Part shown: positions 45,055 to 58,799 of the stretch, one piece after another
Layout: each line of letters opens with the position of its first letter
How positions within the stretch are numbered: position 1 is the first letter of the stretch
From: Verrucomicrobiales bacterium
Lineage (GTDB): Bacteria > Verrucomicrobiota > Verrucomicrobiia > Verrucomicrobiales > V1-33
DNA length: 64,000 nucleotides
Direction of reading: 5' to 3'
NCBI GenBank assembly: GCA_038210825.1
Contig: JBBQWG010000001.1
Span: forward strand, 151,630 to 215,629
Made by a program: the position numbers and the translations under genes
Notes under the pieces: model-generated
Databases searched by the model: none
What the model was told of the DNA's origin: nothing
The model's input: only the letters and a program-made list of their open reading frames with translations

Positions 45055-45155
45055 GGTAATAGATCCTCAAATCGCAGTTCAGCGCCCGGCTAGTCCATGC
45101 GCGGATTTTTGGCTGTCGGATTTTTGGCTTGTCACGCCCGTCCGTTCAATTCCTA

Positions 45156-48100
45156 ATGCGCTTTGTGTCCACTTTCGTGTCGCCAGTCCTTGCACTCGTC
45201 CTCAGCGGACTGTTTGTCCTGGGGTCACCCGCGAATACGCTGCCCGACCCCATGGCGGAGGGCTGGACCAGTGAAACTTTTGCGGAAAATGCGGGGAAAG
45301 CATTAAGTCAGCTCGGTGACCGCCTCAAGAAAGGGGACCTTGCTGCCTATGCCACGACGCCCTCGGACGTGCTCCGGCCGGCGACCCTGTCAAAAGTGTA
45401 TGATGGTCCGGATTTTTCCGTGCACCGGGGGGTGATGGCCCAGGGAGGGAGTCCCCGGCCCAAACTGCAGACGGCCTTGTCAGCGGTGCGGGCTGCGTTT
45501 TCAGCGCCGGGTCCGGCCAGGCTGAAATTCAAAGTGTTTGGTATCGCGGGTAAAACCACCCGCCAATACGTCTCCATATTTGGTCCAGCAGAGGGCGGAC
45601 TGCTCGAAATCAACGCCACCTGGGAGACCCGATGGGAAGGGGAGGCTGCGGCCCCGGTTCTGGCGGAAGTCAGGATTGAAGCCTACGAAGAAGTGCGGCG
45701 GCAGGCTCCGCAGACCCTTTTTGTCGATGCCACCCACGCAGTGCTGCCCACCGATGCCGGCGTGCGCCAGCAGTATATGACGGGCACGGATGGATGGCGC
45801 GAACGCATCGAAACCTTCAACCGCATGTTCAAGTTTGCCTATTGCGGGCTGGCGATCGGCGATGCGGATGGGGACGGGCTTGATGATCTGTTCTCCTGCC
45901 AGAATGGAGGCCTGCCAAACCGCCTCTTCCTGCAAAACCCTGACGGCACGCTGAGGGACGCTACCGAATCTTCGGGGCTGGGCATGCTGGACGCCACGCA
46001 AGCCGCCCTGTTTGTGGATCTGGACAACGATGGTGACCAGGACCTGGTCGCCACCATGCCATCCGGACTGGTGTTTTTTGAGAACCTTGGCCATGCCAGA
46101 TTTCAACTGCGTTTGAAATCGCGGGTAGCCGAAGCCGGTTACTCACTGGCAGCCGCCGATTACGACGGCAATGGCTATGTGGATATTTTCGTGTGCCGCT
46201 ACCACGCGGACAAAAAGGAGGGGGCCCAACTGGCCGTCCCGGTGCCGTATTTCAATGCGGAGAACGGCGGGGCCAACTACCTCGTCCGCAATCTCGGACC
46301 GTCCAAAACAGGAGGCTGGCTCGACTTCGACGACGCCACTCAGGAGGCCGGCCTCGATGTCCGGAACCGCCGCTTCAGCTTTGCCGCCGTGTGGGATGAC
46401 CTCGACAATGATGGTGACCCCGACCTCGTCATCGCCAACGATTTCGGGCGCAAGATCTGCTACCTGAATGATCTGATTCCCACAGGGAAAGCCCGGTTCC
46501 GGGAGGTCGCCGAAGCCGTGGGCCTGACGGACGGCGGGTTTGGCATGTCGGTGGCCACGGCGGACTTCAACCGCGATGGCAAACGGGACCTATACTTTGG
46601 CAACATGTTCTCGGCGGCGGGGAGCAGGATCACCCGGCAGCCCAAATTCCGGCCAGGGGACTCCGACACCATCGTGGCTGAATTCCAGCATATGGCCCGG
46701 GGAAACACCCTGTATCTCGGCAGCGGGGACGCGGCAAAACCAGGATTCAATGACGTCAGCGAACCCTCGGGCACGGCGATGGGCCGCTGGAGCTGGGGCG
46801 CGGTGCCTGCGGATATCAATCACGACGGCTGGGAGGACCTGCTTGTCGCTAACGGCTATGTCACCGGACGGGATCCGGGTGATTTGTGAAGCGTGGTCTG
46901 GCGGCAGGTCGTGTCGTCTTCACCGCTGGATCCCACGAAGGTCGCTGAAGCCAACGACCGCCAAAGCCCATACCGGAAATCCATCCTGGGGGTTGATGAC
47001 CTGCTGGACCGCGGATTTTCGCTCAGCGGGCATGAGCGGAATGTCTGCTTCCTGAACACCGCAGGAACGGGCGGAGGACGCTTCGCCACCGTGAGTGCGG
47101 CGTCGGGATTTGACTTCGATGATGATGCCCGGGCCGTCGTGGCGGTGGATTGGGATGGCGATGGGGACCTCGACACCTGGACCAGCAACCGCACCGCGCC
47201 GATGCTTCGGTTTCTGAAAAATACCCACAGCGAATCAGGTGCCAAAGACGACTGGCTGCAGATCCGCGTTGAGGCGACCCGTGGAGCGCGCGATGGCATT
47301 GGGGCCCTCGTCAAGGTCGTGTTGGAGAACGGAACGGAAGTCGTCCGCGTGTTGAAGGCGGGGGAAGGTTTTCTCAGCCAGTCCAGCAAGTGGCTGCACT
47401 TCGGCCTCGGCCGCGATGCCAAAGTCCGTCAGGTGCAGGTCCGCTGGCCGGGGAGAGGTGAGGAAAGTTTCGGCGGAGTGCAGCCGGCAGGGCATTTTGT
47501 TCTGATGGAGGGCGTAAAACTGGCCCGGCCTCAGCCGCGCAGGGCGGTTCCAGCGTTGCCCGCCGGGCCGGTCCCCCCGCCGGAGACGGCGGCGTCGACG
47601 GCCGCTTATGCCGGTTCGCGGGTGGCCGCTCCGCAGCTTCCCTACCTTGGGTTCGATGGGAAAAATCTGAATGTGGGCGGGAAATCCGGCCAACTGACGA
47701 TCGTCAACCTTTGGGCGACGTGGTGCCTCCCTTGTCTCATTGAACTGAAGGATCTCGCGGCTCACCACGCCGCGTTAAAAAAGATGGGGCTGCGGGTGGT
47801 GGCTCTCTCGGTGGATGGCCTGACGGAGGGCGGCACCCCGGGGGATCCAGCCGCCTTGGTGACGAAGTTGAAACTTCCCTTCGAGTGCGGCCGGGCCACG
47901 CCGGCTTTGGTTCGCCGCGTGGAAAAACTCCGCACCAACAGTTGGGGAGTGAAATGGCCGTTCCCGGTGCCCGCCAGTCTGCTGCTTGATGGAGATGGAC
48001 GTCTCCTCGCCATATATTATGGTCCAGTGAGCCCCGCCCGGCTGTTGGCCGATGTGCCCCGCGCCGCGCTCGCACCGGAAGCCTTGCACGACGCCGCAAT

Positions 48101-48644
48101 GCCGTTCCCCGGAACATGGGTCGAGCGACCCAACCGCCCGATCCCCATGGCCCTTGCGCTCGACCTGATGGACGAGGGCGATTTGGATGCCACCTTGGAA
48201 TTTGTCTCCCGGATTGATCCGGAGTTGTCCCGCCATCCCGACTTTGCCACCCTCATGACCTGGATCGGCGACGGTCTGATGGCGCGCGGCGACTCCCAAG
48301 CCGCCCTGCAAGCCTTCGCCACCGGACTGAAGGCCGACGCCAATAACATTTCCCTGCTCAACAACCTGGCATGGCAGCTGGCCGCTCATCCTATCGAAAA
48401 AATCCGCGACGGCCCCCAAGCGGTGCGCCATGCTGAAAAAGCGGCCGCTTTGACCCGGCATGCCGACCCGTCGGTCCTGGATACCCTGGCCGCCGCCTAC
48501 TCCCAGGCAGGGCAATTCCCCGAAGCGGTCGCCACCGCAGAAAAAGCACTCGCTCTGGCTGAAAAATCCCGGAACCAAACGCTGGCCGATGGCATCCTCA
48601 AAGGATTGTCCTTCTATCGCAAGGGTCGGGCTTACGGCCGCTGA
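45156..48644 (+). CDS. Candidate selenoprotein: secreted FG-GAP/VCBS-repeat + ASPIC/UnbV + thioredoxin-like (CxxC) + TPR protein, read through an in-frame UGA at 46887-46889. The ORF track splits it into 45129..46889 and 46893..48644
   Basis: Both ORFs share one frame (46893-45129 = 1764 = 3 x 588) and are separated by TGA plus one Ser codon. The signal peptide MRFVSTFVSPVLALVLSGLFVLG occurs only on the first ORF. FG-GAP repeats lie upstream. UnbV-like GIGALVKVVLENGTEVVRVLKAGEGFLSQSSKWLHFGLG, the motif WATWCLPC and TPRs lie downstream. A SECIS-like hairpin follows the UGA, and the Sec machinery lies in the same window. Confidence 0.55.
46887..46932 (+). promoter_or_regulatory. In-frame UGA followed by a SECIS-like stem-loop
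   Basis: UGA is at 46887-46889, followed by a 10-nt spacer. A 7-bp stem pairs 46900-46906 (GGCGGCA) with 46912-46918 (UGUCGUC), using 5 Watson-Crick and 2 G-U pairs. The apical loop is GGUCG (46907-46911). The motif GCAGGUC is shared with the E. coli fdhF SECIS apex as I recall it. An alternative 10-bp outer stem pairs 46895-46904 with 46923-46932. Confidence 0.5.
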
Positions 48645-48781
48645 GACGGATGCCTGTTCGCGTGGTCTGTTTGTGTATTCCGTTTTTCACATGAAGCTTT
48701 AATATTTTTCTTCCCAGACCTCAGGAAATCCCTTATGCAGAGACTCCCCCGGAAGCTTAAAGTCCTGTGCTGCCCAGTCCT

Positions 48782-51769
48782 ATGAAAACCATTTTCACCA
48801 TTCCCCGATTCGAGATTTGGCGGATCCGCAATCTTTGGGCCTGCCTGATGGCAGCCGCTGCGCTTTGCGGCCTCGCCCCGGTGCACGCCGCCCCGGTCCC
48901 TATCAACAACGCCAGCTTTGAAAGCGCCAATTACAGCGGCGCCAACAGTTGGACCAATGATCTCAATGACGCCAACCCCGAGACCACCATCGAATGGACG
49001 GGCCGGGATGGAAGCAGCAGTGGCCAGAGCTTCATTGAGCGCATCGGGGGATTTATTTCCCATGGCGTGGCCCACGTCGGCATGGAAGTCGGTTATTTCA
49101 TCTATCAGGACACCGAGGCCCCTTGGCTTCCCAATACCCGATACACCCTCACCGTTGGGGTCGGCAGGCGGAACGCGGCTTTCAGCACGGCCACCAATCT
49201 GACCACCATCGGTTTGACAAACACCTTCCCCGTCGGGAGCAACGCGGCAGAAGTGATTCTCAATGATCCTTTTCTGGCGGAAGCCAATGCCACCAAAAAC
49301 GTGTCCCCCCAGGCGCTCAGCAGCTTTGCGGATCTGTCGTTAGTCTTCACAACCGGGGCCACGGCACCAACCGGAACAATCATTGTGTTTTTAGGGGATC
49401 AATCAGGCACCGGGCGGTCCCATTTTGACAACGTCCGGCTCGATGCGGTGTCGGCGCTGGATCCGGATGGAGACGGTTTACCAAGCGACTGGGAAATTGC
49501 CAATCAGCTCGATCCGAACAGTGCCGCCGGAATCCATGGGGCGGGCGGGGACCCTGACAATGATGGATCCCCCAATTCTGAGGAATTCGCGAGAAGAACC
49601 AATCCCCAAAACCCCGATACTGACGGAGACGGGGCCAAGGACGGGGCCGAAACCAAGACCGGAATTTTTGTTTCCCTGACTAATCTTGGCACTGATCCCC
49701 TGGTGGCGGATTCCGATGGAGATACCCTGCTGGACGGCAGTGAACCCTTGGCCAATCCCCACGTGACCGACCCCAACAAGGCGGATACGGACGGGGATCA
49801 ATTCGAAGACCAGGCCGAGATCGCTTCCGGAACCAATCCGGCGGTAGGCGGGCAAGCAGACTTTCCCTCCTCCACCAGCGACCTCATTTTGGGCCTCAAC
49901 TTCATCGGTGGACGGGTGGATGGAAGCTTGGGCGGTTCGGTCACTGGATCCGCAGGGGTCGTCCCCCAATCCAACTGGAACAACCTCGCCGACCTCTCAG
50001 GCGCAGGCGCACCGCTCAAAAATGCGGGCGGCACCGGAGTCATCATGCGGGCAGAGTGGACGGTGGACGACACTTACACGGTGCTTCAAGGCGCAATCCC
50101 GGCTGATTCCGACGCCTCGCTCATGCAAGGGCTGCTCAGAACCCGTAAGGGAGTGCCCACCCAGGTAACCGTTCGCAACATCTCCGTGCCTACTTATGAC
50201 GTTTATGTCTATGCCGACGGCGAAGGCACTGACCGCACCGCCACATACACCGTGAATGGCCAAACCATCTCAGGAGTGATGGACAATGAGAATTGGCCCA
50301 TCGATACCGGCGGTGGTGTCTTCAAAGTAGTGACTGGCAATGGTGCAGCCGGCAACTACCTCCTTTTCCGCAATGTTACGGGACCCACCATGACCCTCAC
50401 CGTGGTTAATACCACTCCTTCCAATGACTTCGGGGGTCCGGTGAATGCGATCCAAATCGTGCGCGCCACGGGCGACACCGATGGCGACGGGATGCCTGAC
50501 ATCTGGGAAGATGCCAATGGGCTCAACAAAAACGTCAACGATGCCGGCGGGGATCCCGATGCCGACGGATCCTTGAACCTGCAGGAATTCCAGCGCAATA
50601 CCAACCCTCAGGATCCTGATTCGGATGATGATGGCCTGTTGGATGGAGTCGAAACCAAGACGGGCATCTACCTGAACGCGGGCAACACCGGAACCGATCC
50701 CCTCAAGGCTGACACCGACGGCGACGGACTGAACGATGCCATCGAAAACAACTCCGGGATCTTTGTGGATGCCAACAACCCTGGCACCGATCCCAACAAG
50801 GCCGACACTGATAACGATGGCTTCAGTGACAGTGAGGAAATCGCTGCCGGCACCAGCCCTGTCAGTGCCGCCAGCAAACCAGTTCTTCCTATCCCGCTGG
50901 GCTATTGGCCCTTCAACGACCAGGGCATGACCACCACCGCCGACCTCTCGCCTGCCGGCAATGCTGGGAATCTCCAGGGTGGCACCACCTATGTAGCGGG
51001 CCACACCGGTGCGGCAGGGGATTTCGCCATCCAATTCAATGGGATTGATGCCGCAGTGACTACCGGCATCCCACTCCTTGATGGCCTCGACCAATTCACC
51101 ATGTCGGGCTGGCTCAATTTCACCGCAGACCAAGCCGCCCGGACCGGCATCTTCGGTCAGAATGACGTGGTGGAATTTGCATTTTCCACTGCTCCTACCA
51201 TCGAACTGTGGAACCCCACGGGCGGAGCGATCAACACGCCGTCGGCCCCTGCAGGAGGCGGGACATGGAACCACATCGCTGTCACTGCCAGCGATACCGG
51301 CCGCCGCATCTACATCAATGGAGTCCTGGTCGCTTCCGGCAGCGTCGGAACCCCCACCGCCACCACCGGCGGCAGCTTCAACATCGGCGGAGCGGGCATC
51401 GCGGACGCTGCGGGCAACTGGTTCAATGGAGCCATCGACGACGTGGCGGTCTGGAACACTTCACTCAGCGCGACCTTCGTCAGCCAACTGGCCAGCAAGG
51501 CGATCTCACCGCTGCCTGCGGCTCCTTCCGGCGAATTTGGGATCCGCAGCATCAACTTCAACCAGGCCACCCGCCAGTTCACCTTGAGTTATGATAGCAC
51601 GGCCGGCGTCCAGTATGTTGTGGAATTCCTTGATCCCAACCACCCGACGCTCAATAACACATGGCAGTCCACCCCCACCGTGACCGCGACCGGATCGGTT
51701 AGCACCTATACGGAGACCATGCCTGCGGGGGCGAACCGGCGCATCTTCCGGGTAAGGCGCCTACCCTGA
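48782..51769 (+). CDS. Secreted protein with thrombospondin type-3-like calcium-binding repeats and a C-terminal LamG domain
   Basis: Signal peptide MKTIFTIPRFEIWRIRNLWACLMAAAALCGLAPVHA. Repeated D-x-D-x-D-G units are present (DPDGDGLPSDWE, DPDNDGSPNSEEF, DTDGDGAKDG, DSDGDTLLDG and a second block). The LamG region is FTMSGWLNF...WNHIAVT...RIYINGVLV...NGAIDDVAVWN. Confidence 0.8.
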   Translation: MKTIFTIPRFEIWRIRNLWACLMAAAALCGLAPVHAAPVPINNASFESANYSGANSWTNDLNDANPETTIEWTGRDGSSSGQSFIERIGGFISHGVAHVGMEVGYFIYQDTEAPWLPNTRYTLTVGVGRRNAAFSTATNLTTIGLTNTFPVGSNAAEVILNDPFLAEANATKNVSPQALSSFADLSLVFTTGATAPTGTIIVFLGDQSGTGRSHFDNVRLDAVSALDPDGDGLPSDWEIANQLDPNSAAGIHGAGGDPDNDGSPNSEEFARRTNPQNPDTDGDGAKDGAETKTGIFVSLTNLGTDPLVADSDGDTLLDGSEPLANPHVTDPNKADTDGDQFEDQAEIASGTNPAVGGQADFPSSTSDLILGLNFIGGRVDGSLGGSVTGSAGVVPQSNWNNLADLSGAGAPLKNAGGTGVIMRAEWTVDDTYTVLQGAIPADSDASLMQGLLRTRKGVPTQVTVRNISVPTYDVYVYADGEGTDRTATYTVNGQTISGVMDNENWPIDTGGGVFKVVTGNGAAGNYLLFRNVTGPTMTLTVVNTTPSNDFGGPVNAIQIVRATGDTDGDGMPDIWEDANGLNKNVNDAGGDPDADGSLNLQEFQRNTNPQDPDSDDDGLLDGVETKTGIYLNAGNTGTDPLKADTDGDGLNDAIENNSGIFVDANNPGTDPNKADTDNDGFSDSEEIAAGTSPVSAASKPVLPIPLGYWPFNDQGMTTTADLSPAGNAGNLQGGTTYVAGHTGAAGDFAIQFNGIDAAVTTGIPLLDGLDQFTMSGWLNFTADQAARTGIFGQNDVVEFAFSTAPTIELWNPTGGAINTPSAPAGGGTWNHIAVTASDTGRRIYINGVLVASGSVGTPTATTGGSFNIGGAGIADAAGNWFNGAIDDVAVWNTSLSATFVSQLASKAISPLPAAPSGEFGIRSINFNQATRQFTLSYDSTAGVQYVVEFLDPNHPTLNNTWQSTPTVTATGSVSTYTETMPAGANRRIFRVRRLP

Positions 51770-51882: not shown

Positions 51883-54156
51883 TTGATGCATCCCACGTCG
51901 TCCTTCCCTCAAACCCGCCACCTTGTCCTCCTCGGAGGGGGTCACAGCCATGCGCTGGCGCTTCGCCACTTGGCCATGAATCCCCTGCGGGGGATCCGTG
52001 TCACTCTGATCTCCGAGGGATCCGCTGCTGCTTATTCAGGGATGCTGCCCGGGCACATCGCGGGGATGTATTCATGGGAGGAAATGCACATCGATCTGCG
52101 CCGGCTTTGTGCCTCCGCAGGGGCGGCGTTTATCCACGCCGAAGTAGTGGGACTGAATGCGGCCGCGCGGAGTATCACTCTGGCCGGACGCCCCCCTCTA
52201 ACTTATGATGTCATATCCATCAATTTGGGCGGAACGCCACAAACGGCCAATGTTCCGGGCGCCGCTGAGTTTGCTGTCCCGGCCAAACCAGTGCCCCGCC
52301 TGCTGGAGGGTTGGAGCCGCATCCAGAAGGCCGCCAGGCAGCGGGCCGTTCCACCGCAGCGACCCCTGCGGGTGGTGGTGGTCGGTGGGGGTGCCGGCGG
52401 GGTGGAACTAGCCCTTTGCATGCAACATCAGCTCGGCGGACTGGCGGAAATAACGCTTATTCATCGCGGAACATCCATCATGGACACGCATCCAACCCGA
52501 GTGCGTTCGCTCCTCTCTGCAGTCCTTGAGGAAAGGCACATTCAAATCCTGACATCGGCAGAAGTGACGGAAGTCAGAGCGGACCGCGTCAGGCTCGCCG
52601 GAACAGCCCTCCCTGAAGTGCCGGCTGACTTTGTTCTCTGGGTGACTTCCTCCACCCCTGCCCCATGGCTGGCGGCCAGCGGATTGAAAACCGCCAGCGA
52701 TGGATCCGTCTCTGTTTCTGATTGTCTACAGTCCACCAGCCATCCGGAGGTGTTTGCGGCAGGGGATGTGGCCTCCCTTCCGGAGCGGCTGCCACGTTCC
52801 GGAGTTTACGCGGTGCGGATGGCCCGGCCATTGGCCAACAATCTCCGGAGGTATCTTTCCGGCACCGCGCTTCGACCATACCGTCCCCAACGATCCTTCC
52901 TCAGCCTTATCGGCACGGCGGATGGCAAGGCGGTGGCCAGCCGGCGCCCTTGGGCCTTGCGTTCGGGGTGGCTCTGGCGGCTCAAGGACGGAATCGACCG
53001 CCGCTTCATGGGGAAATTTGAACACCTCCCCGTGATGAAAGTTAAGCGGCAGCCTGCCACGCAGACCGCGCAGCAGCCCGCGTCGCCGTCCGGGCCCCCG
53101 GCCATGCGGTGCCGGGGGTGCGCCGCCAAAATCGGGTTCCCGACGTTGAGCGCCACCCTCGACCGGTTGCGGGAGGATTTTCCTGACGTAGTGCGGAGCG
53201 CGGACCACCGGGACATTCAAATCGGCCTCGATTCGCCGGATGATGCGGCCGTTTTCTCCACTCCACCCGGCCATCGGCTGGTGCAGACGGTGGACTATTT
53301 GCCGGCGCTCATGGACGATCCGTTTGTCTTTGGACAGATCGCCGCCCTGCATGGCTTCAGCGATGTCTTCGCCATGGGGGCGGAGCCCCATAGCTGCCTT
53401 GCTGCGGCGCTGGTGCCATTCGGTGGTGCAGCCCTGACAGAGGAATTGCTCTATCAACTGCTGGCGGGGGTGCTTACCGTGCTGCGCCAAAGTGAAACCC
53501 GCCTGATAGGGGGGCATTGTGCCGAGGGCGATCCCATGGCCCTGACTCTTGTGTGCAATGGCCTCGTGTCCCCTGACAGCTCCCTGATGACCAAGGGTGG
53601 CCTGCGCGCCGGCGACCTGCTTATTCTCACGAAACCCATCGGGACCGGCATCCTTTATGCCGCCGCGATGCGGCATCTGGCCCGTGCGCGGTGGATCGAT
53701 GCCGCCGAGCGCTCCATGTTGCGGTCGAATTTGCCGGCCAGCCGGATTCTCCTCGCGTATGGGGCCACCGGATGCACGGACGTAACCGGGTTCGGACTGG
53801 CCGGCCATTTGCAGGAGATGCTGCGCGCCTCGGGGTGCAGCGCCCTGGTGCGGCCCGACACCTTGCCACTCATCGATGGAGCTTTGGACGCCTCCGGTCT
53901 TGGCGTGCGCAGTTCGCTTTACGAGTCCAATGCCGCTGCGGTCGCCCTGACTCCGGAAGCCGCGCGATTCGCGGAACATCCGAATTTTCCCCTGCTGTTC
54001 GATCCTCAGACTTCGGGTGGACTGCTCGCCGGCGTGGCCGAAACCAAGGCGGAAAGCTGTCTCGCGGCCTTGCAGGCCGCCGGGTATCCGGAAGCCGCCA
54101 TCATCGGGCACATCCTGACAGGTCCTCCCGAAGCACCACTCCTCACGTTTTCCTAG
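51883..54156 (+). CDS. selD: Bifunctional FAD-dependent pyridine nucleotide-disulfide oxidoreductase (NADH dehydrogenase-like) / selenide, water dikinase
   Basis: 757 aa. The N-terminal half has Rossmann motifs (LVLLGGGHSH, VVVVGGGAGGVELA). The C-terminal half is SelD: RCRGCAAKIG (Cys-type active site), DDAAV, GQIAALHGFSDVFAMGAEP, LILTKPIGTG, DVTGFGLAGH, PQTSGGLL. Confidence 0.88.
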   Translation: MMHPTSSFPQTRHLVLLGGGHSHALALRHLAMNPLRGIRVTLISEGSAAAYSGMLPGHIAGMYSWEEMHIDLRRLCASAGAAFIHAEVVGLNAAARSITLAGRPPLTYDVISINLGGTPQTANVPGAAEFAVPAKPVPRLLEGWSRIQKAARQRAVPPQRPLRVVVVGGGAGGVELALCMQHQLGGLAEITLIHRGTSIMDTHPTRVRSLLSAVLEERHIQILTSAEVTEVRADRVRLAGTALPEVPADFVLWVTSSTPAPWLAASGLKTASDGSVSVSDCLQSTSHPEVFAAGDVASLPERLPRSGVYAVRMARPLANNLRRYLSGTALRPYRPQRSFLSLIGTADGKAVASRRPWALRSGWLWRLKDGIDRRFMGKFEHLPVMKVKRQPATQTAQQPASPSGPPAMRCRGCAAKIGFPTLSATLDRLREDFPDVVRSADHRDIQIGLDSPDDAAVFSTPPGHRLVQTVDYLPALMDDPFVFGQIAALHGFSDVFAMGAEPHSCLAAALVPFGGAALTEELLYQLLAGVLTVLRQSETRLIGGHCAEGDPMALTLVCNGLVSPDSSLMTKGGLRAGDLLILTKPIGTGILYAAAMRHLARARWIDAAERSMLRSNLPASRILLAYGATGCTDVTGFGLAGHLQEMLRASGCSALVRPDTLPLIDGALDASGLGVRSSLYESNAAAVALTPEAARFAEHPNFPLLFDPQTSGGLLAGVAETKAESCLAALQAAGYPEAAIIGHILTGPPEAPLLTFS

Positions 54157-56071
54157 CTGACCCCAGGGTGCGGACATCGCCGCTCCGCCGCGTAAACCCC
54201 TCCCGGTCACAGCGTTCGAGAAACGGGATCATGACCCGCCGGGAACTGCCCAGACAGGTTCTGAGATCACTAACTTTGGCAGGACCCTGCTGTTGGATAA
54301 AGGCCGCGAGGGTCTCCTTCATTTTGGCGTAGGCCGACGCAGAGAGGACTACCTCACTATCAAGCTCGATGATCCGGCCTGCTTCCCGGAAGAAACGCAG
54401 GGCCTGCTGGGAGGGCAAATCCGGAGCCAATTCGCTGCGGGAGGGAGGGTCAAATGGTCTGAGGGCCAAGGCCGCCAGCAGCCGGCCTCCAGCTGCCCGG
54501 AGCGGAGGGGGGAGCGCCGCCCGGTGAGACTGGCGCTGGATAGCGTGCTTCACTTTTCCAAACCCGTTCGCGCAAAGGTCCGCGACGAGCGATTCGAAAA
54601 CCCTGGGAACCTTCACCTCACTTCCCAGCGCACTCTCCAACCGGCCCAGATCGAGTCCCGGCAGGTCAGGATGGTTGCGGTGTTCCAGATCAATCAGAGC
54701 GGCAGCGGCGGTGAACAGATTTCTCCACCACCCTGCCTCCGCCAAAAAATCACCATGCCCCACTAACTCCCCCTGCGCCAGGCATTCACCCACGGCGTCC
54801 TCCACCTCACGGATGCTGAATCCCGACTTTGCCAGCAACGTCCCGCGCGGCACCACCCGATGCCGGGCAAGCTGAGTCCTGACAAAGACCCCGGCGTCCA
54901 TGGGAGCGCGGGCCCGGGCGGCCAGCAGGAGTTGCTGCGCTTCGGTGCGGAAACCCGGAGCACTGGCTTCCGGATCCAGCACCAAGGCACCCGCAAGGGT
55001 GTGGCGTGCCGAAGCATCGCGCAGAACACAACGATCCCCGGCAAAGACCAGCATGGGGGAGTCCATCCGCACCTGCGCCACCACAGAAGCACCAGGCAGG
55101 AGCACCCCGGAGTCCTTCAGATAGACCCTCGCCTCCGAGCTGCCGCTGCCATGATGCAGGCGCAGCCGTTCCCCGTGCCGCAGCGGTGGCGCATCTGCCG
55201 GCAGGCGGGCCAAACGGGTGAGCAACACATCCACCATCCGCCTGGGCTCCCCGGCATCCGTCCGGGTGATGACCTGCCCGCGGGCCAAACCGCCATCGCC
55301 CACCCGGTGCTGCACGGAGGCCTCCGGAAGATTCAGCGCCGCACGTTGCCCAGAGCTGATTTCGGCCACCTCATGGTGGTGGTTTTGAATCCGGCGCACC
55401 CGCAGAGGGGTATCGCATGGACGGGCCATGACCGTGTCACCAACGAGGAATTTTCCCCCGCTCAAGGTGCCGGTCACCACCGTTCCGAGGCCCCGCAGGG
55501 AAAAGGCCCGATCCACTGCGAGGCGTGGCTTGCCAATGTCCCGCCGCGGCGGAAGCTTTGACAGTTCCTGGGTCAGGCAGGACCGCAACTGGTCGAGGCC
55601 TAACCCTGCCACACAGGAAGTGGGCACGATAGGAGCATCCGCATAGTTGCTCTCCTGAAGTTGCTGGCGGAGCGCTTTGCCGGCAGCCTCAGCGTCTGCG
55701 AGGTCGCATTTGGTCAGCGCTACCACCGCCCGCGGCACTCCAAGGTAGGTCAGGATGTGGAGGTGCTCCTCGGTCTGCGGCATCCAGCCGTCATCCGCCG
55801 CCACCACCAGCAATGCCAGATCGATCGATCCCACTCCGGCTACCATGTTCTTGACAAAATCCTCGTGCCCGGGGACGTCGATCACGCCGATGGAGAATTC
55901 AGAGCCATCCGCCGGCAGGGTCAGCTGCGCGAACCCCAGATCGATGGTGATGCCCCGGGCTTTTTCCTGCGGCAGGCGGCTCGGATCGGTGCCGGTCAGC
56001 GCTTTGACCAAGGCGCTCTTTCCGTGGTCCACATGGCCAGCGGTGGCAACAATAAAGGGCGTGGCGGTCAC
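54143..56071 (-). CDS. selB: Selenocysteine-specific translation elongation factor
   Basis: 642 aa. GTPase motifs are present (ATAGHVDHGKSALVKALTG, DVPGHEDF, TKCD). A long C-terminal winged-helix extension is typical of bacterial SelB. Confidence 0.92.
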   Translation of the reverse strand: MTATPFIVATAGHVDHGKSALVKALTGTDPSRLPQEKARGITIDLGFAQLTLPADGSEFSIGVIDVPGHEDFVKNMVAGVGSIDLALLVVAADDGWMPQTEEHLHILTYLGVPRAVVALTKCDLADAEAAGKALRQQLQESNYADAPIVPTSCVAGLGLDQLRSCLTQELSKLPPRRDIGKPRLAVDRAFSLRGLGTVVTGTLSGGKFLVGDTVMARPCDTPLRVRRIQNHHHEVAEISSGQRAALNLPEASVQHRVGDGGLARGQVITRTDAGEPRRMVDVLLTRLARLPADAPPLRHGERLRLHHGSGSSEARVYLKDSGVLLPGASVVAQVRMDSPMLVFAGDRCVLRDASARHTLAGALVLDPEASAPGFRTEAQQLLLAARARAPMDAGVFVRTQLARHRVVPRGTLLAKSGFSIREVEDAVGECLAQGELVGHGDFLAEAGWWRNLFTAAAALIDLEHRNHPDLPGLDLGRLESALGSEVKVPRVFESLVADLCANGFGKVKHAIQRQSHRAALPPPLRAAGGRLLAALALRPFDPPSRSELAPDLPSQQALRFFREAGRIIELDSEVVLSASAYAKMKETLAAFIQQQGPAKVSDLRTCLGSSRRVMIPFLERCDREGFTRRSGDVRTLGSARKT

Positions 56072-56085
56072 AGGCGGGGAGGCGG

Positions 56086-57468
56086 TTAGGTTGATTCGTT
56101 AGTCGCAGCAGGGGCCTCCGCCACGGCCATGATGATCGAATCCACCAGGGCCGTATCCTGCCGGGGGAAGACTGTCCGGAGATCGATTTTGAAATGCTTC
56201 TTCGTGATGTTTCCCACCACCGGCACCGGGCCAAGGCGAAGCCGTTGGCTGAATGCCTCCAAGCTGAGGCCGGCGGGGACGAGGTCCACAGTGATGGACG
56301 GTAACGAACTGCGGGGCAGGGTGCCTCCTCCCACCTGCCCCGTTCCGTGGCCCACCGTCGCCCGCAACGGCTGGTCCACAAGTGCTGCGACAATCCTTTC
56401 GGCACGGGCCACCAGCGACTCCCGGCTTGCTTGCAGCATCGAGATCACCGGCAGCGTGCCGGTATCACCGGCAAGGCATTGGTCCACCGTGGATTGCAGG
56501 GCGGTGAGCACCAGCTTCCCACACCGCAGCGCCCGGTAGAGGGGTTCCCGCTTAAGCGCTGATACCGCGTGTTGCCGCCCGGCGATGATCCCTGCCTGCG
56601 GACCTCCAAGCAGTTTATCGCCGCTGAAACACACCAGATCCGCTCCACTCCCTAGCACCTCCTCAACGGTGGGCTCATGTTCCAGTCCGGCGATTTTTTC
56701 CGTGGCCAGAATCGCGCCGCTTCCAAGATCTTCCACGAAGGGAACGCGTTTGCTCCTGGCCAACCGGGCGATTTCCCCCGTCGTGGGTGACTGCACGAAA
56801 CCGCCCATGAAAAAATTGCTGCGATGCACTTTTAAAACCAGCCCGGTCTCCGGTCCAAGAGCCCGTGCGTAGTCTTCGAGGGTCGTCTGATTGGTCGTCC
56901 CCACTTCGCGCAGGCGGGCTCCGCTCGCTTCGAGGATTTCCGGAACGCGGAACCCCCCGCCGATTTGCACCAATTCCCCGCGCGAAATCACCACTTCCGG
57001 TCTTTTCGCCGTGAAATGCCTAACCATCAGCATCAGTGCGGCGGCACCATTGTTCACGACCATGGCAGCTTCCCCACCACAAAGCAGCGCCAGGTTGTGC
57101 TCCAGATAACCCGCCCGGCTGCCGCGCGTTCCCCCCGTGAGATCGATTTCCAGATTGCAATACTCCCCGGCCACCGCGTGGACGGAATGGTTTGCTGCCG
57201 GTCCAAGTGGCGAGCGTCCCAGATTGGTATGGATCAGGATGCCGGTGCCATTGATGACCGGGCGGATCTTCTGCGCAAGGAGTTGGGAAATTGCTATTTG
57301 CACCCGCCGGGCCACAGCTTCGGGCTCCGGAATCGCCGCCTCTTTGCGCAGCGCCGCCAGTTCCCGCCGCACGATCGAGACCACGGCCGGTCGCGGCAGA
57401 TCAACGGTGCCGATCGCCCGCAGGACAGCCTGAACGGCCGGGATGGATCGTAACCGCGCTGGATTCAC
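56086..57468 (-). CDS. selA: L-seryl-tRNA(Sec) selenium transferase
   Basis: SelA signatures include LRSIPAVQAVLR, VINGTGILIHTNLGRSPL and the PLP-lysine region FSGDKLLGGPQAGII. A GTG start at 57466-57468 (MNPARLRSIP) is proposed because the upstream part of ORF 56086..57642 is occupied by tRNA-Sec. Confidence 0.88.
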   Translation of the reverse strand: MNPARLRSIPAVQAVLRAIGTVDLPRPAVVSIVRRELAALRKEAAIPEPEAVARRVQIAISQLLAQKIRPVINGTGILIHTNLGRSPLGPAANHSVHAVAGEYCNLEIDLTGGTRGSRAGYLEHNLALLCGGEAAMVVNNGAAALMLMVRHFTAKRPEVVISRGELVQIGGGFRVPEILEASGARLREVGTTNQTTLEDYARALGPETGLVLKVHRSNFFMGGFVQSPTTGEIARLARSKRVPFVEDLGSGAILATEKIAGLEHEPTVEEVLGSGADLVCFSGDKLLGGPQAGIIAGRQHAVSALKREPLYRALRCGKLVLTALQSTVDQCLAGDTGTLPVISMLQASRESLVARAERIVAALVDQPLRATVGHGTGQVGGGTLPRSSLPSITVDLVPAGLSLEAFSQRLRLGPVPVVGNITKKHFKIDLRTVFPRQDTALVDSIIMAVAEAPAATNEST

Positions 57469-57502
57469 TGGCTCATCAGGAAGTGGGGGGACAGAAAAAG
57501 GG

Positions 57503-57598
57503 GGCGGAGAGGACAGGAATCGAACCTGCCCCGGCCCGCAGAACGGACCGGCGTCGGTTTTGAAGACCGCAGGGACCACCAGGCACCCTTCACTCTCC
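57503..57598 (-). tRNA. selC: tRNA-Sec (anticodon UCA); ends approximate to +/-2 nt
   Basis: The reverse complement reads GGAGAGTGAAGGGTGCCTGGTGGTCCCTGCGGTCTTCAAAACCGACGCCGGTCCGTTCTGCGGGCCGGGGCAGGTTCGATTCCTGTCCTCTCCGCC. The anticodon loop is CUUCAAA (plus-strand tga at 57561-57563). A long 8-bp variable arm pairs CCGGTCCG with CGGGCCGG. The 4-nt D-loop is UGGU. The T arm GCAGGTTCGATTCCTGT is nearly identical to E. coli selC as I recall it. The discriminator is G. The gene lies directly upstream of selA-selB. Confidence 0.85.
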
Positions 57599-57830
57599 GG
57601 GGTGCTCCCCGTTGCCATTTCTACCGGCAAGCGCAATGGCAAGAGTGGGACACCGGAGATCGAGGTAGTTGGTTTGCGGGCAGGAAAAATTTGTTAAGTT
57701 GCGGTGAAATACTGCCAAGTGGAAATTGTTCGGGGCGCGGGATGTAGCCAGACCAGACGTGGACGGGGCTGACCCTGCAGAGCGGCATGGGGATGCCCGG
57801 TCCTTCCACCAAAAACCTGCCCATCGCCAT

Positions 57831-58799
57831 CTAAAAATCTCCCGCCGGGAAAGCGGTCGCCAAATCCGCTAGCACGGTCTGAGGGAAAATCGGGTTTCCT
57901 CCCCGGTCCAGCCAGGGACTGCAGGCGGCGACACAGCCCTGCCCCGGCCACACCCCGAACATGACGCCGCTGACTCCCGATTTCGCTGGCAATCCAGTCC
58001 TCCCGAACCATGCGGCCGACGCTTCATAAAGACCGCACCGGCTCATGGCCCGCAGCACCCGGGCGCGGTCTGCCATCCCGGTCATCGCCAAAGCGTGGCC
58101 CAACCACGCCACATCCTGGATGTTGCCTGCCAAACAACACATCCGGAAGTAGATCTCATACGCGGCCCTTGCGGATATCGCCCGCTGGCTTCCTGCCAAC
58201 TCCTCCGCCAATGCCCAATTGGAGGGATCCCTGCCGTTCTGCATCACCCCGGCGAAACATTCGCCGTCCAATTTTAAAACTGCTTCCGGGGCCAATCCTG
58301 CCAGCCACGCCACGAAAAGCCTCTCCTGCTCAAGCGGTCCATCCCCCGGCATCTTGGAAGCCAACAGCATCGCCCCGCTGTTCAGCATCGCGTTCCGCGG
58401 CTTCCCGCCATCCGCCTGCAGTTGTTCCAGCGACCAATACGGCAGGCCGCTTGGCTCGTCATCCACCCATCCTGCCACCGTTTCCGCCCCATAACATTCC
58501 AATGCCCGCAGCAGCAAAAATGGCTTCACGGCACTCATCAGGGTAAACCGGTCTTCCCCGTCCCCGGCCACCCTGACATTTCCACCGGCCACGCAACAAA
58601 CTGCTTCCCCCTCAGCTCTTCCCGGTGCCTCCATGCAAAGCACCTCCTGCGGATCCCGCCGGACCAGCCCCGCGCGGCCTTGTTCCCGCATTCCGGCAAG
58701 GTAGGCATTGGTGATGGTTTCGATCCCGGACACGAGTGACTTTCTATCGGCTTTTGCACATGACAAGGAAGCGCGCTGCTTCGGAAAAACGACGTTCAC
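57831..58799 (-). CDS. glsA: Glutaminase-family protein (serine-dependent, beta-lactamase fold), divergent N-terminus
   Basis: Motifs: FTLMSAVKPFLLLRAL (S-x-x-K), EPSGLPYWSLEQL, PRNAMLNSGAML, GLPAKSGVSGVM. The GTG start overlaps the stop of the upstream 1379-aa gene (GTGA). Confidence 0.8.
   Translation of the reverse strand: MNVVFPKQRASLSCAKADRKSLVSGIETITNAYLAGMREQGRAGLVRRDPQEVLCMEAPGRAEGEAVCCVAGGNVRVAGDGEDRFTLMSAVKPFLLLRALECYGAETVAGWVDDEPSGLPYWSLEQLQADGGKPRNAMLNSGAMLLASKMPGDGPLEQERLFVAWLAGLAPEAVLKLDGECFAGVMQNGRDPSNWALAEELAGSQRAISARAAYEIYFRMCCLAGNIQDVAWLGHALAMTGMADRARVLRAMSRCGLYEASAAWFGRTGLPAKSGVSGVMFGVWPGQGCVAACSPWLDRGGNPIFPQTVLADLATAFPAGDF

Follow-up and report, generated by a model that had tools for sequence, protein, structure and literature searches.

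A CRTAC1-like bacterial gene interrupted by an in-frame UGA is predicted to encode an exported selenoprotein with an fdhF-type SECIS

Proteins of the CRTAC1 and ASPIC/UnbV type have an FG-GAP calcium-binding propeller followed by a UnbV_ASPIC domain. Vertebrate CRTAC1 carries a C-terminal EGF-like domain, and the NCBI name 'CRTAC1 family' is used for bacterial proteins with no EGF requirement. Neither CRTAC1 nor the short bacterial proteins of this family contain selenocysteine (Sec), and N, S, D or E is found at the residue aligned with the site described here. Selenoproteins with a thioredoxin fold are catalogued, namely the UGC-containing TlpA family, the Prx-like thiol:disulfide oxidoreductase and WAxxUGC_long (NF041054). 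They are extracytoplasmic redox proteins of the thiol/selenol kind with a TlpA/ResA-like fold, and their Sec is located in a CxxC-type motif of that fold. According to a 2026 review, nearly all selenoproteins have far commoner Cys homologues, and discovery methods use Cys/Sec pairs. Kim et al. (2016, PLoS One, PMC4807772, Table S9) listed gene pairs, split at an in-frame UGA, that combined FG-GAP and ASPIC/UnbV domains. A bSECISearch-positive hairpin was found in three of their four candidates, several copies occurred per genome, and the nearest non-Sec homologue carried Gly and not Cys. Compared by description only (IMG ids), and with agreement on every point, these candidates are almost certainly the same family as the one reported here. 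The earlier note on this DNA knew of no selenoprotein family with this architecture. The supplementary table of Kim et al. precedes it, but that table gives no alignment, SECIS analysis, distribution or function, and the family is found neither in the 2026 selenoprotein catalogue nor in NCBIfam.

We analyzed a 64-kb stretch of DNA (the window). The sequence, the translation and the program-made ORF list (45129..46889 and 46893..48644, both on the plus strand and in the identical frame) agreed on two same-frame ORFs separated by a single TGA, as the earlier note had stated. The reading frames 45156-46886 and 46890-48644 were linked via TGA 46887-46889. The local reading was GGT GAT TTG TGA AGC GTG GTC TGG, and translation of 45129-48644 in one frame gave a sole internal stop, with NGYVTGRDPGDL before it and SVVWRQVVSSSPLDP after it. 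We predict, with a probability of about 0.92, that 45156-48644 on the plus strand is a single gene for an exported selenoprotein of 1162 residues (577 aa, Sec578 and 584 aa), in which the internal UGA (context TTG-TGA-AGC) is read as Sec and TGA 48642-48644 is the terminal stop. Long open frames bridged by TGA were found in eight cases in the window, seven of them in frames without a coding look, and such bridges are not rare in this GC-rich DNA. The present case stands out beyond chance because of the comparative evidence on the codon in homologues and on the hairpin.

The domains were distributed over the two halves. The NCBI protein of the first half (P0001) begins at the ATG at 45156. A putative signal peptide (MRFVSTFVSPVLALVLSGLFVLGSPA, 45156..45233, plus strand, approximate boundaries) was read from the translation; it was the sole targeting signal seen in the protein, with none in the C-terminal half. 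Pfam gave FG-GAP_3 (PF13517, 116 bits) and FG-GAP (PF01839, 75 bits) for the first half and nothing else, which matched the claim that it lacks the ASPIC/UnbV module. The second half gave UnbV_ASPIC (55 bits), AhpC-TSA/Redoxin and TPR, and here Pfam and the translation agreed with the proposal that this ORF brings ASPIC/UnbV, a TlpA-like WATWCLPC motif and TPRs. The FG-GAP/VCBS beta-propeller (45860..47230, plus strand, approximate boundaries) spanned the TGA. A DxDxDG blade (DWDGDGDLD) was located downstream of the TGA, and precomputed PF13517 matches were present in some C-half homologues. The propeller was followed on the plus strand by the UnbV_ASPIC domain (47295..47483; PF07593, 55.4 bits against a cut-off of 23.4), a TlpA/ResA-like thioredoxin-fold domain with WCLPC (47586..48029; Cys857 and Cys860, codons 47724-47735) and a C-terminal TPR region (48087..48569; Pfam TPR_2 and related families, PDB TPR matches). 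The Pfam scan of the window protein gave no EGF family, and its C-terminus consisted of the thioredoxin-like and TPR parts. The clade order is signal peptide, N-terminal domain, FG-GAP propeller, UnbV/ASPIC sandwich, TlpA-like domain and TPR, so that an N-terminal domain, a fused TlpA-like domain and TPR are added compared to CRTAC1.

The thioredoxin domain scored 31.3 bits for AhpC-TSA (cut-off 26), and Redoxin stayed under its cut-off. The family profile matched TlpA 1jfu (E 1e-19) and ResA (E 1e-12) in the PDB. However, the NCBIfam TlpA equivalog NF047696 was not reached (51 bits against 230). This module is a TlpA-like domain, not TlpA. NF041054 was not reached by the window protein either (20 bits against 300). 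In contrast to the catalogued thioredoxin-fold selenoproteins, the motif here was an ordinary CLPC, and the predicted Sec was located 279 residues upstream in the propeller.

The surroundings of the Sec site were viewed in an AF2 model of the read-through homologue P0129 (pLDDT 86, pTM 0.80). The Sec-site residue opened the helix 293-303, with propeller strands on both sides, and the position equivalent to Cys631 began the strand that returned to the propeller. In this model, the Sec site is inside one folding unit, at a helix N-cap, and not in a linker. Across the clade, a conserved helix (U-SFFWRQVV) is inserted in a propeller blade, and the residue that caps its N-terminus is almost always Sec. 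The best PDB match of the read-through homologue's model (not the window protein) was murine CRTAC1 9etn_A, with E 1.3e-22, TM 0.44/0.50 and rmsd 9.5. A profile matched 9etn with E 1e-30, and its HMMER alignment stopped short of crossing the Sec site.

The earlier note had proposed looking for Cys or TGA at the aligned position, and this gave a clear result. Species-representative genomes of Verrucomicrobiota, Planctomycetota and Acidobacteriota supplied the 80 loci closest to this gene (41-56% protein identity to the window protein), and 78 of these carried an in-frame TGA at the aligned codon, in addition to the window. The other two carried GCC (Ala) and TAC (Tyr), and TAA, TAG or a Cys codon was found in none of the 80. 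When a junction-spanning query was used, all 120 best protein matches covered one half only. The N-half proteins ended at ...DL in 86 of 86 cases, and the called start codons of the C-half proteins varied, all of them within the conserved (S)FFWRQVVSxSP stretch. Codons +1 to +7 after the UGA kept their amino acids with synonymous variation (Ser AGT/AGC/TCG/TCT; Phe TTC/TTT; Arg CGG/CGA/CGT/AGG). The UGA was preceded by TTG in 64/77 and followed by AGY in 73/76. Cys forms at the Sec position were rare, with three (P0242, P0261 and P0277, all TGC) among about 75 read-through cluster representatives. About 150 read-through relatives included none with Trp at the site and just 2 with Gly. At least 575 relatives were present among species representatives. 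As judged from these codons, Sec is far commoner than Cys in this clade, which is unusual. The earlier note had counted a variable non-Cys residue at this position against recoding. Such variation was found in the wider CRTAC1-like relatives (E/S/D/N/A), but recoding is not thereby refuted, since the evidence at the RNA level does not depend on it, and rare Cys forms exist too.

The RNA-level evidence came from a hairpin downstream of the UGA, where the SECIS search proposed in the earlier note returned an fdhF-like bSECIS with covariation and frozen synonymous sites. The core hairpin of the window, GCGGCA-GGUCG-UGUCGU (46901..46917, plus strand), had 6 bp, with a basal G-U in the window, and a 5-nt loop, and it lay on the codons W-R-Q-V-V-S. 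The family consensus was GCGRCA-GGUCG-UGYCGC, a 17-nt element that begins 11 nt after the UGA (nt 15-31). In the family alignment A2, 96.6% of cells were paired, compensatory double changes were found in three of the six pairs, none of 500 shuffles came up to these values, and pairing fell to 14-67% when the partner columns were slid. The hairpin codons were almost fixed (CAG 69/72, GTC 68/78, GTG 65/68, TCG 62/64). Their synonymous entropy was 0.2-0.7 bit, compared to 1.8-2.3 bit at V/L/G/S codons of equal conservation in other parts of the same genes, across loci with a GC span of 38-71%. All six pairs were formed in 66/78 Sec forms and five in 10/78. In 11 sense-codon relatives with the same WRQVV peptide, the codons varied, and the register held 2-4 of 6 pairs in nine, 5/6 in one Ser form and 6/6 in one Cys form. 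The hairpin decayed in most sense-codon relatives. A covariance model of the UGA and hairpin gave 55 bits at the window site, and across 611 kb on both strands it reached 44 bits or more solely at 79 TGA junctions and one Cys form. The Cys form P0242/L081 kept a perfect hairpin, which means that the hairpin could serve beyond Sec insertion or that the Sec-to-Cys change was very recent.

The bSECIS model describes a loop of 3-9 nt, a stem of 4-16 bp, G in the first two loop positions, a UGA-to-loop distance of 16-37 nt and an MFE of −7.5 or lower (PMC13188914). The hairpin had this geometry, with 6 bp, the loop GGUCG and a UGA-to-loop distance of 17 nt. The family energy over nt 13-33 had a median of −9.3 kcal/mol and was −7.5 or lower in 68/78, and the isolated 17-mer of the window gave −5.9 kcal/mol, weaker than the threshold. 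The window also had a specific longer stem (46892..46937, plus strand), in which 46892-46904 paired with 46923-37. It competed with the core hairpin and was more stable (MFE −29.2 kcal/mol, compared to −24.4 with the family hairpin enforced). This local MFE fold also fitted the bSECIS model, with a small G-containing apical loop placed 22 nt after the UGA. The z-score for the window alone was −1.5, so the hairpin was thermodynamically unexceptional there.

The hairpin resembled the SECIS of E. coli fdhF (formate dehydrogenase H). Both hairpins were located at nt 15-31 (the U of the UGA being nt 1), inside the coding sequence, and both had about 6 bp with the top ...CA-GGUC...UG.... However, the family hairpin had a 5-nt loop (GGUCG), no bulged U and no conserved long lower stem, and its GGUC was one nucleotide nearer the UGA. 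G23/U24 and a bulged U are the SelB contacts in the fdhF hairpin. We predict that the family hairpin is a SelB-recruiting SECIS of the fdhF type.

The Sec machinery that the earlier note had placed downstream was confirmed at 51883-57599, 3-11 kb away, with selA, selB, selD and tRNA-Sec all four present within the window. SelD, selenophosphate synthetase, was a fusion with an N-terminal pyridine-nucleotide-disulfide oxidoreductase and had a Cys-type active site (51883..54156, plus strand). The Sec-specific elongation factor SelB (54143..56071, minus strand) matched Pfam GTP_EFTU, Beta-barrel_SelB, SelB-wing_2 and SelB-wing_3. Selenocysteine synthase SelA (56086..~57500, minus strand; Pfam SelA, 380 bits) had its true start downstream of the tRNA gene. 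The tRNA-Sec with anticodon UCA (57502..57599, minus strand) was found by ARAGORN and scored 63.5 bits for Rfam RF01852 (gathering score 47). We propose that a ribosome at UGA 46887-46889 would meet the hairpin 46901-46917, which as an fdhF-type SECIS would recruit SelB and Sec-tRNA(Sec). SelB and tRNA-Sec would be supplied from the genes 7-11 kb downstream. Sec would be inserted at 578, and translation would then run to the true stop at 48642-48644.

Other explanations of the TGA were considered. The two halves could be genuine separate genes, where translation stops at UGA 46887 and the second gene is started by termination-reinitiation at GTG 46893, or in relatives at a conserved GTG eight codons on, with the hairpin for coupling or regulation. 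NCBI and gene callers annotate two proteins everywhere, a 'VCBS repeat-containing protein' and an 'ASPIC/UnbV domain-containing protein'. GTG at codon +8 was kept in 65/68, and some called C-halves begin there or nearby. However, codon +8 is fixed as GTG because it is part of the 3' arm of the hairpin, and non-Sec relatives use GTC, GTT or GTG there. The codons before it, +1 to +7, were conserved as amino acids and are translated in read-through relatives, and the stop was invariably TGA in 79 cases. In addition, the C-half had no signal peptide, yet its parts included a blade of the propeller and a TlpA-like domain of periplasmic type, and in the homologue model the break fell within the folded propeller at a helix N-cap. 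Two genes are therefore very unlikely, and the one-polypeptide reading of the earlier note stood up. A pseudogene or a sequencing or assembly error, that is, a nonsense mutation in one ordinary CRTAC1-like gene, has next to no chance of being correct. One base change from TGC, TGG, TCA or GGA yields TGA, and the window came from one assembly of unrated quality, but the same TGA was found at the aligned codon in 78/80 independent loci of several phyla, and both halves were intact ORFs under purifying selection. By this sequence comparison, the error explanation is already refuted.

The remaining explanations concern how the UGA is read. In bacteria, Sec insertion and termination by RF2 compete, so that some truncated product is expected. 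A selenium-dependent switch would give the full-length protein with selenium and a functional truncated FG-GAP protein without it, and the conserved flanks of the UGA (TTG 64/77, AGY 73/76) could tune this competition. Nevertheless, a product cut short here would be missing the final propeller blade or blades and would end at the helix N-cap, and it is therefore unlikely to fold. No homologue with a natural end near here on another stop codon was found among the loci and read-through relatives examined. We consider the switch unlikely. Read-through by non-Sec means, either near-cognate Trp/Cys or a reassigned code, has a precedent elsewhere, as downstream structures can promote stop-codon read-through in other systems, and the hairpin would then merely stimulate it. 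However, a complete Sec machinery adjoined the gene, the hairpin loop had a GGUC of the SelB type, placed as in fdhF, and the read-through relatives had no Trp and only two Gly at the site. UGA also terminates this gene, which means that the genetic code is standard. Non-Sec read-through is extremely improbable, and recoding of UGA 46887-46889 as Sec is well supported by the comparative data.

We tentatively suggest, at slightly less than even odds, that Sec578 is a redox-active nucleophile in an extracytoplasmic selenol/thiol redox enzyme. Sec578 would probably cycle via a selenenylsulfide with Cys631 (GHERNVCFLN, codon 47046..47048, plus strand), a candidate resolving cysteine 53 residues after Sec. 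The fused CxxC domain (Cys857/Cys860) would then return it to the reduced state, with electrons from a membrane DsbD/CcdA-type reductant. From the lectin-like propeller, one may guess at a carbohydrate or cell-surface molecule as substrate. In two homologue sets, with kinship ignored, Cys at one of the two positions after 'ERN' was found in 66/78 Sec forms compared to 2/72 non-Sec forms. It was present in all three Cys forms (P0242, P0261 and P0277) and also in several close non-Sec relatives. The rare Cys forms at the Sec position and the tracking of this Cys with Sec or Cys support a redox role. In outgroup CRTAC1 genes, the thioredoxin and TPR parts are a separate overlapping downstream gene, whereas here they are fused, which argues for a functional link. 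However, non-Sec relatives keep the thioredoxin-like module too, fused or operonic, and this counts against the redox proposal. The Cys after 'ERN' in close non-Sec relatives, the Cys that some members have at the matching strand position one blade earlier, and E/S/D/N/A rather than Cys at the site in the wider superfamily also count against it. The Trx-MsrA-MsrB fusions (PDB 2h30, 2jzr and 2fy6) could serve as a working analogy for the re-reduction of Sec578. They are likewise secreted catalytic modules fused to a CxxC thioredoxin-like domain, and their thioredoxin domains matched this one at E ~1e-6. The catalytic module here is a propeller, so the likeness is by inference and not by homology of the catalytic parts.

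The family is widespread in bacteria and is still overlooked by genome annotation and by the present selenoprotein catalogues. Public genomes contain hundreds of genes, and metagenomes many proteins, that are divided into 'VCBS/FG-GAP' and 'ASPIC/UnbV, thioredoxin or TPR'. A dedicated model would mend this, and the covariance model used here cleanly separated the TGA forms. Since Sec is commoner than Cys here and the wider relatives are non-Cys, the family points to a blind spot in discovery methods based on Cys/Sec pairs. Because the SECIS comes close to the E. coli type, it should be practicable to express the protein heterologously and to run reporter tests. In addition, a redox-type residue and a reductase module are tied to CRTAC1/ASPIC-UnbV proteins of bacteria, and the family offers a natural setting in which to study why Sec is kept. 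It is possible, although on balance doubtful, that this is the first beta-propeller selenoenzyme family, a widespread, multi-copy, extracytoplasmic CRTAC1-like clade of Planctomycetota, Verrucomicrobiota and Acidobacteriota. Sec would have been gained at a helix N-cap from a non-Cys ancestor and would far outnumber Cys, and the Sec-Cys pair would be served by the fused TlpA-like reductase. On that reading, the family escaped the catalogues because discovery pipelines depend on Cys/Sec pairs. If this is true, the clade may be a main reason why many of these bacteria retain the Sec machinery.

The window sequence placed a TGA at 46887-46889, in the context GGT GAT TTG TGA AGC GTG GTC TGG, between two ORFs of a common frame (45129..46889 and 46893..48644). 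When 45129-48644 was translated in a single frame, this was the one internal stop, with ...NGYVTGRDPGDL before it and SVVWRQVVSSSPLDP... after it. Pfam identified only FG-GAP repeats in the first half, and UnbV_ASPIC, an AhpC-TSA/Redoxin-type thioredoxin fold (WATWCLPC) and TPRs in the second. An earlier note on this DNA had described two same-frame ORFs around a single TGA with this division of domains. The sequence, the translation, the ORF list and Pfam bore out both points, and the observation was right in every detail. The GC-rich window contained 8 TGA bridges between long open frames, 7 of them in frames without a coding look, and no convincing second TGA-split ORF was found in it. Since such bridges were not rare in the window, the case rested on comparison with other genomes. 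An apparent second in-frame stop about 112 codons upstream, seen in five loci, was an artefact of the start-codon rule.

A junction query of 384 aa, with U written as C, was searched against 5.8 billion proteins. Each of the best 120 matches was limited to one half of the query, either the N-terminal 45% or the C-terminal ~52%. The NCBI labels were 'VCBS repeat-containing protein' for the N-half and 'ASPIC/UnbV domain-containing protein' for the C-half. All 86 N-halves (to ~50% identity) stopped at exactly ...[DG]DL, and the starts of the C-halves varied within one conserved stretch (MSSSPLDP, VSSSPLDP, VWRQVV..., MFWRQVV...). A GTDB scan with one genome per species gave at least 575 relatives, and the best 80 loci were retained. 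These belonged to Verrucomicrobiota, Planctomycetota, Acidobacteriota and one MAG labelled Flavobacteriaceae, with 2-5 copies per genome in several genomes or MAGs. The earlier note had proposed searching other genomes for the same in-frame TGA, and the aligned codon was TGA, in frame, in 78 of the 80 best loci and TAA or TAG in none. The two sense codons were both acidobacterial, GCC (Ala) in locus L050 and TAC (Tyr) in locus L068. The flanks of the TGA followed NG[YF]xTxxxxxDL-U-S[FV][FY]WRQVV. The codon context was kept, even in high-GC genomes: over the TGA forms as a whole, the preceding Leu was TTG (64/77) and the following Ser was AGY (73/76; columns 7-15 of A2, the 78-sequence alignment of TGA forms; window 46884-46892). 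The base after UGA was A in 75/78. This context may affect the competition between selenocysteine (Sec) insertion and termination. The sole family member in a Bacteroidota-labelled MAG was locus L071 (3859-3910; PBCE01000008.1, labelled Flavobacteriaceae), which may be due to horizontal transfer or a binning error.

The TGA forms shared a hairpin, GCGRCA-GGUCG-UGYCGC, which lay behind an 11-nt spacer at nt 15-31, with the U of UGA as nt 1. In the 78-sequence alignment, 96.6% of cells were paired and compensatory double changes were observed in 3 of the 6 pairs, for example A-U/G-C/G-U/U-A at pair 27:37 and A-U to G-C at 29:35. In 500 shuffles the observed values were never reached, and pairing fell to 14-67% when the partner columns were slid by 1-3. 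The hairpin corresponded to the codons of W-R-Q-V-V-S, whose synonymous sites were near-fixed (CAG 69/72, GTC 68/78, GTG 65/68, TCG 62/64; 0.2-0.7 bit) across loci of 38% to 71% GC. In the same genes, Val, Leu, Gly and Ser codons of equal conservation outside the hairpin showed 1.8-2.3 bit. The same WRQVV peptide was written with other codons (GTG GTG, GTT GTT or GTC GTC) in 11 sense-codon relatives. Of the six register pairs, nine of these 11 kept only 2-4, whereas one Ser form kept 5 and one Cys form all 6. Among the TGA forms, all 6 were kept in 66/78 and 5 in 10/78. In L071 the hairpin was shifted by one nucleotide (GGCGAC-AGGUU-GUCGCC).

A SECIS covariance model, as the earlier note had suggested, separated the TGA junctions from the sense-codon sites with the exception of one Cys form. 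Scores of the model (UGA plus hairpin) reached 44 bits or more at the 79 TGA junctions and that Cys form and nowhere else in 611 kb (both strands); other homologous sense-codon sites gave 13-39 bits. The window held no second SECIS-like match. The family hairpin also fell within the published bSECIS limits, namely a loop of 3-9 nt, a stem of 4-16 bp, G in the first two loop positions, a UGA-to-loop distance of 16-37 nt and MFE <= -7.5 (PMC13188914). In the window, the core hairpin at 46901-46917 had a G-U at its base and was weak alone (-5.9 kcal/mol). A longer competing stem (46892-46904 with 46923-46937) had an MFE of -29.2 vs -24.4 kcal/mol with the family hairpin enforced; it also presented a small G-containing loop 22 nt after UGA. 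Single-sequence thermodynamics was uninformative (z = -1.5 for 74 nt, +0.6 for 151 nt), and RNAalifold alone recovered 4/6 hairpin pairs. The upper hairpin of the E. coli fdhF SECIS lay at the same nt 15-31 with the same ...CA-GGUC...UG... top. The fdhF SECIS sequence was confirmed at 100% identity under fdhF in >5,400 genomes. In this element, G23 and U24 are the bases in contact with SelB.

The Sec insertion machinery named in the earlier note was found in the window as a compact cluster. The selD gene (51883-54156, +) was followed on the minus strand by selB (54143-56071), selA (56086-~57500) and tRNA-Sec (57502-57599). SelD was fused to an N-terminal pyridine-nucleotide-disulfide oxidoreductase (TIGR03169 'Nterm_to_SelD', 444 bits; selD, 254 bits). 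Its active site was of the Cys type (RGCAAK), so SelD itself is no selenoprotein here. An Rfam scan of 44-59 kb returned tRNA-Sec only, and the hairpin had no Rfam match. Elsewhere, the 3-kb surroundings of family members showed no sel genes, and there was no DsbD/CcdA partner among the neighbouring genes (27-63 kb of the window). The directly downstream gene (48767-51769, +) encoded a 1000-aa protein with HpiC1-like, bacterial TSP3-repeat and LamG parts. In about 10/80 loci (L002, L006, L023, L049, L052, L054, L060, L069, L071, L078), an HpiC1/TSP3/LamG-like gene lay no more than 3 kb from the family member. Three of these matches aligned to the HpiC1-like part and the others to the TSP3 repeats, where the similarity may be driven by the repeats. 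Beside the glutaminase gene at 57831-58799, a 1379-aa ORF (58796-62935, -) carried a weak AAA_16/STAND NTPase signature.

The earlier note had read the two ORFs as one polypeptide, and this reading held. Codons +1 to +7 after the UGA kept their amino acids through synonymous changes (Ser as AGT, AGC, TCG or TCT), and this peptide is translated in the read-through relatives, which have a sense codon at the site. The family alignment contained no conserved start codon ahead of the GTG at +8, and this GTG is fixed because it is part of the hairpin. In the AlphaFold2 model of P0129, a read-through homologue with Ser at the site (pLDDT 86, pTM 0.80), helix 293-303 began at the site. After it came another helix (312-326), propeller strands (338-392), the ASPIC sandwich and the Trx fold. 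This topology placed the TGA inside the propeller, and according to the model the two halves are one folding unit. The contrary outcome named in the earlier note, a variable non-Cys linker at the aligned position, was found in part: the residue was variable in wider relatives, but the site was a helix start within the modelled propeller rather than a linker.

These results contradicted the explanation of two genes with reinitiation: the only stop codon seen at the site is TGA, codons +1 to +7 are translated in the read-through relatives, the second half has no signal peptide and the break lies within a domain. A pseudogene or sequencing error was contradicted by 78 independent loci. The Sec machinery encoded nearby, a hairpin loop like that of fdhF and the use of UGA as an ordinary terminator all contradicted read-through without Sec; the actual terminator of this gene is UGA too, which indicates a standard genetic code in which the internal UGA needs a SECIS. 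A selenium-dependent switch between two products was considered unlikely, since the shortened product would be an incomplete propeller. Recoding of the UGA as Sec was well supported.

Short 'CRTAC1 family' proteins, mostly acidobacterial, kept DL-x-SFFWRQVV with x = N (36), S (14), D (8), M, Q, A, E or G. Among 1.84 billion cluster representatives, searched exhaustively with a profile, about 75 were read-through proteins of full length; their residues at the site were E (22), S (18), D (14), A (9), N (5), C (3) and a few others. Five giant proteins (P0241, P0244, P0276, P0317, P0333; 3,366-4,828 aa, 18-38 FG-GAP/ASPIC-like stretches) topped this search by repeat number alone and have no bearing on Sec. 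The three Cys forms, P0242, P0261 and P0277 (all TGC), answered the earlier note's proposal to look for Cys at the aligned position and overturned a reading that Cys homologues did not exist. P0242 was the best-scoring read-through match and kept a perfect hairpin (L081 2125-2178; GCGCCA-GGUCG-UGGCGC, -10 kcal/mol, 56.5 bits in the covariance model) including a C-G pair absent from TGA forms. Either the change from Sec to Cys is very recent here, or the hairpin has a second role. P0261 and P0277 shared one contig with a third copy (L082 and L083, Ga0366744_1002595); CRTAC1-like paralogues formed tandem arrays on this contig and at L084 1-1504 and L085 1-1298. In NJ trees, the radiation of the Sec forms was star-like (internal branches 0.002-0.02, tips ~0.2). 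A first NJ tree had shown one pure Sec clade, which was lost on adding sequences, and the radiation also held ten non-Sec forms (C, S, A, Y, E). NJ trees therefore did not resolve the order of events. The graded decay of the hairpin fits a history in which Sec was lost repeatedly and the SECIS eroded afterwards. Sec far exceeded Cys in the long Trx-fused clade (78 vs 0 among the 80 closest genome loci), whereas the opposite ratio is the rule (2026 review, PMC13188914).

The earlier note was not aware of a described family of this kind, which was correct except for one earlier notice. Kim et al. (2016, PMC4807772) had listed, in a supplementary table, split gene pairs around an in-frame UGA with FG-GAP and ASPIC/UnbV content, which are almost certainly of this family. 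They reported Gly in the nearest non-Sec match and bSECISearch positive in 3/4, with no analysis beyond that. FG-GAP, ASPIC, UnbV, VCBS, PF07593, PF13517 and PF01839 were all absent from the May 2026 prokaryotic selenoprotein catalogue, and NCBIfam release 20 had no model for the family. Further literature searches, including selenocysteine with VCBS and selenoprotein with 'CRTAC1 family', found nothing. The family is likely uncatalogued because discovery pipelines depend on UGA aligned with Cys (PMC13188914). This selenoprotein family is real and very widespread; it was noticed once before and never characterised.

The enzymology of the Sec protein is inferred. A helix N-cap is a common place for a reactive Cys or Sec, and the Sec site was at a helix N-cap in the P0129 model. 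Cys was present at one of two positions after 'ERN' in 66/78 Sec forms, 2/72 non-Sec forms (first searches) and 3/3 Cys forms, as raw counts that ignore phylogeny; several close non-Sec relatives also had it. This Cys began the strand closing the helical insertion. An insertion of ~45 residues in a blade hairpin begins with the Sec helix and ends with the ERN-Cys strand; this topology suggests that Sec and this Cys should be near each other. The TlpA/ResA-like CxxC domain was fused in the Sec clade, whereas short CRTAC1-family outgroups had an overlapping downstream AhpC/Redoxin (+TPR) gene (L086 1978-2081 and L089 1725-1865; P0132, P0122). This argues for a functional link older than Sec. The Trx-like domain resembled those of secreted MsrA/B fusions. 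In a working model of an exported protein, Sec578 would act as the nucleophile, Cys631 would resolve it and the dithiol Cys857/860 would recycle it. The propeller was similar to those of murine CRTAC1 and fungal GlcNAc-binding FG-GAP lectins. Together with the recurrent HpiC1-like/TSP3/LamG neighbour, these likenesses suggest, as a guess, that the substrate might be a surface glycan or protein.
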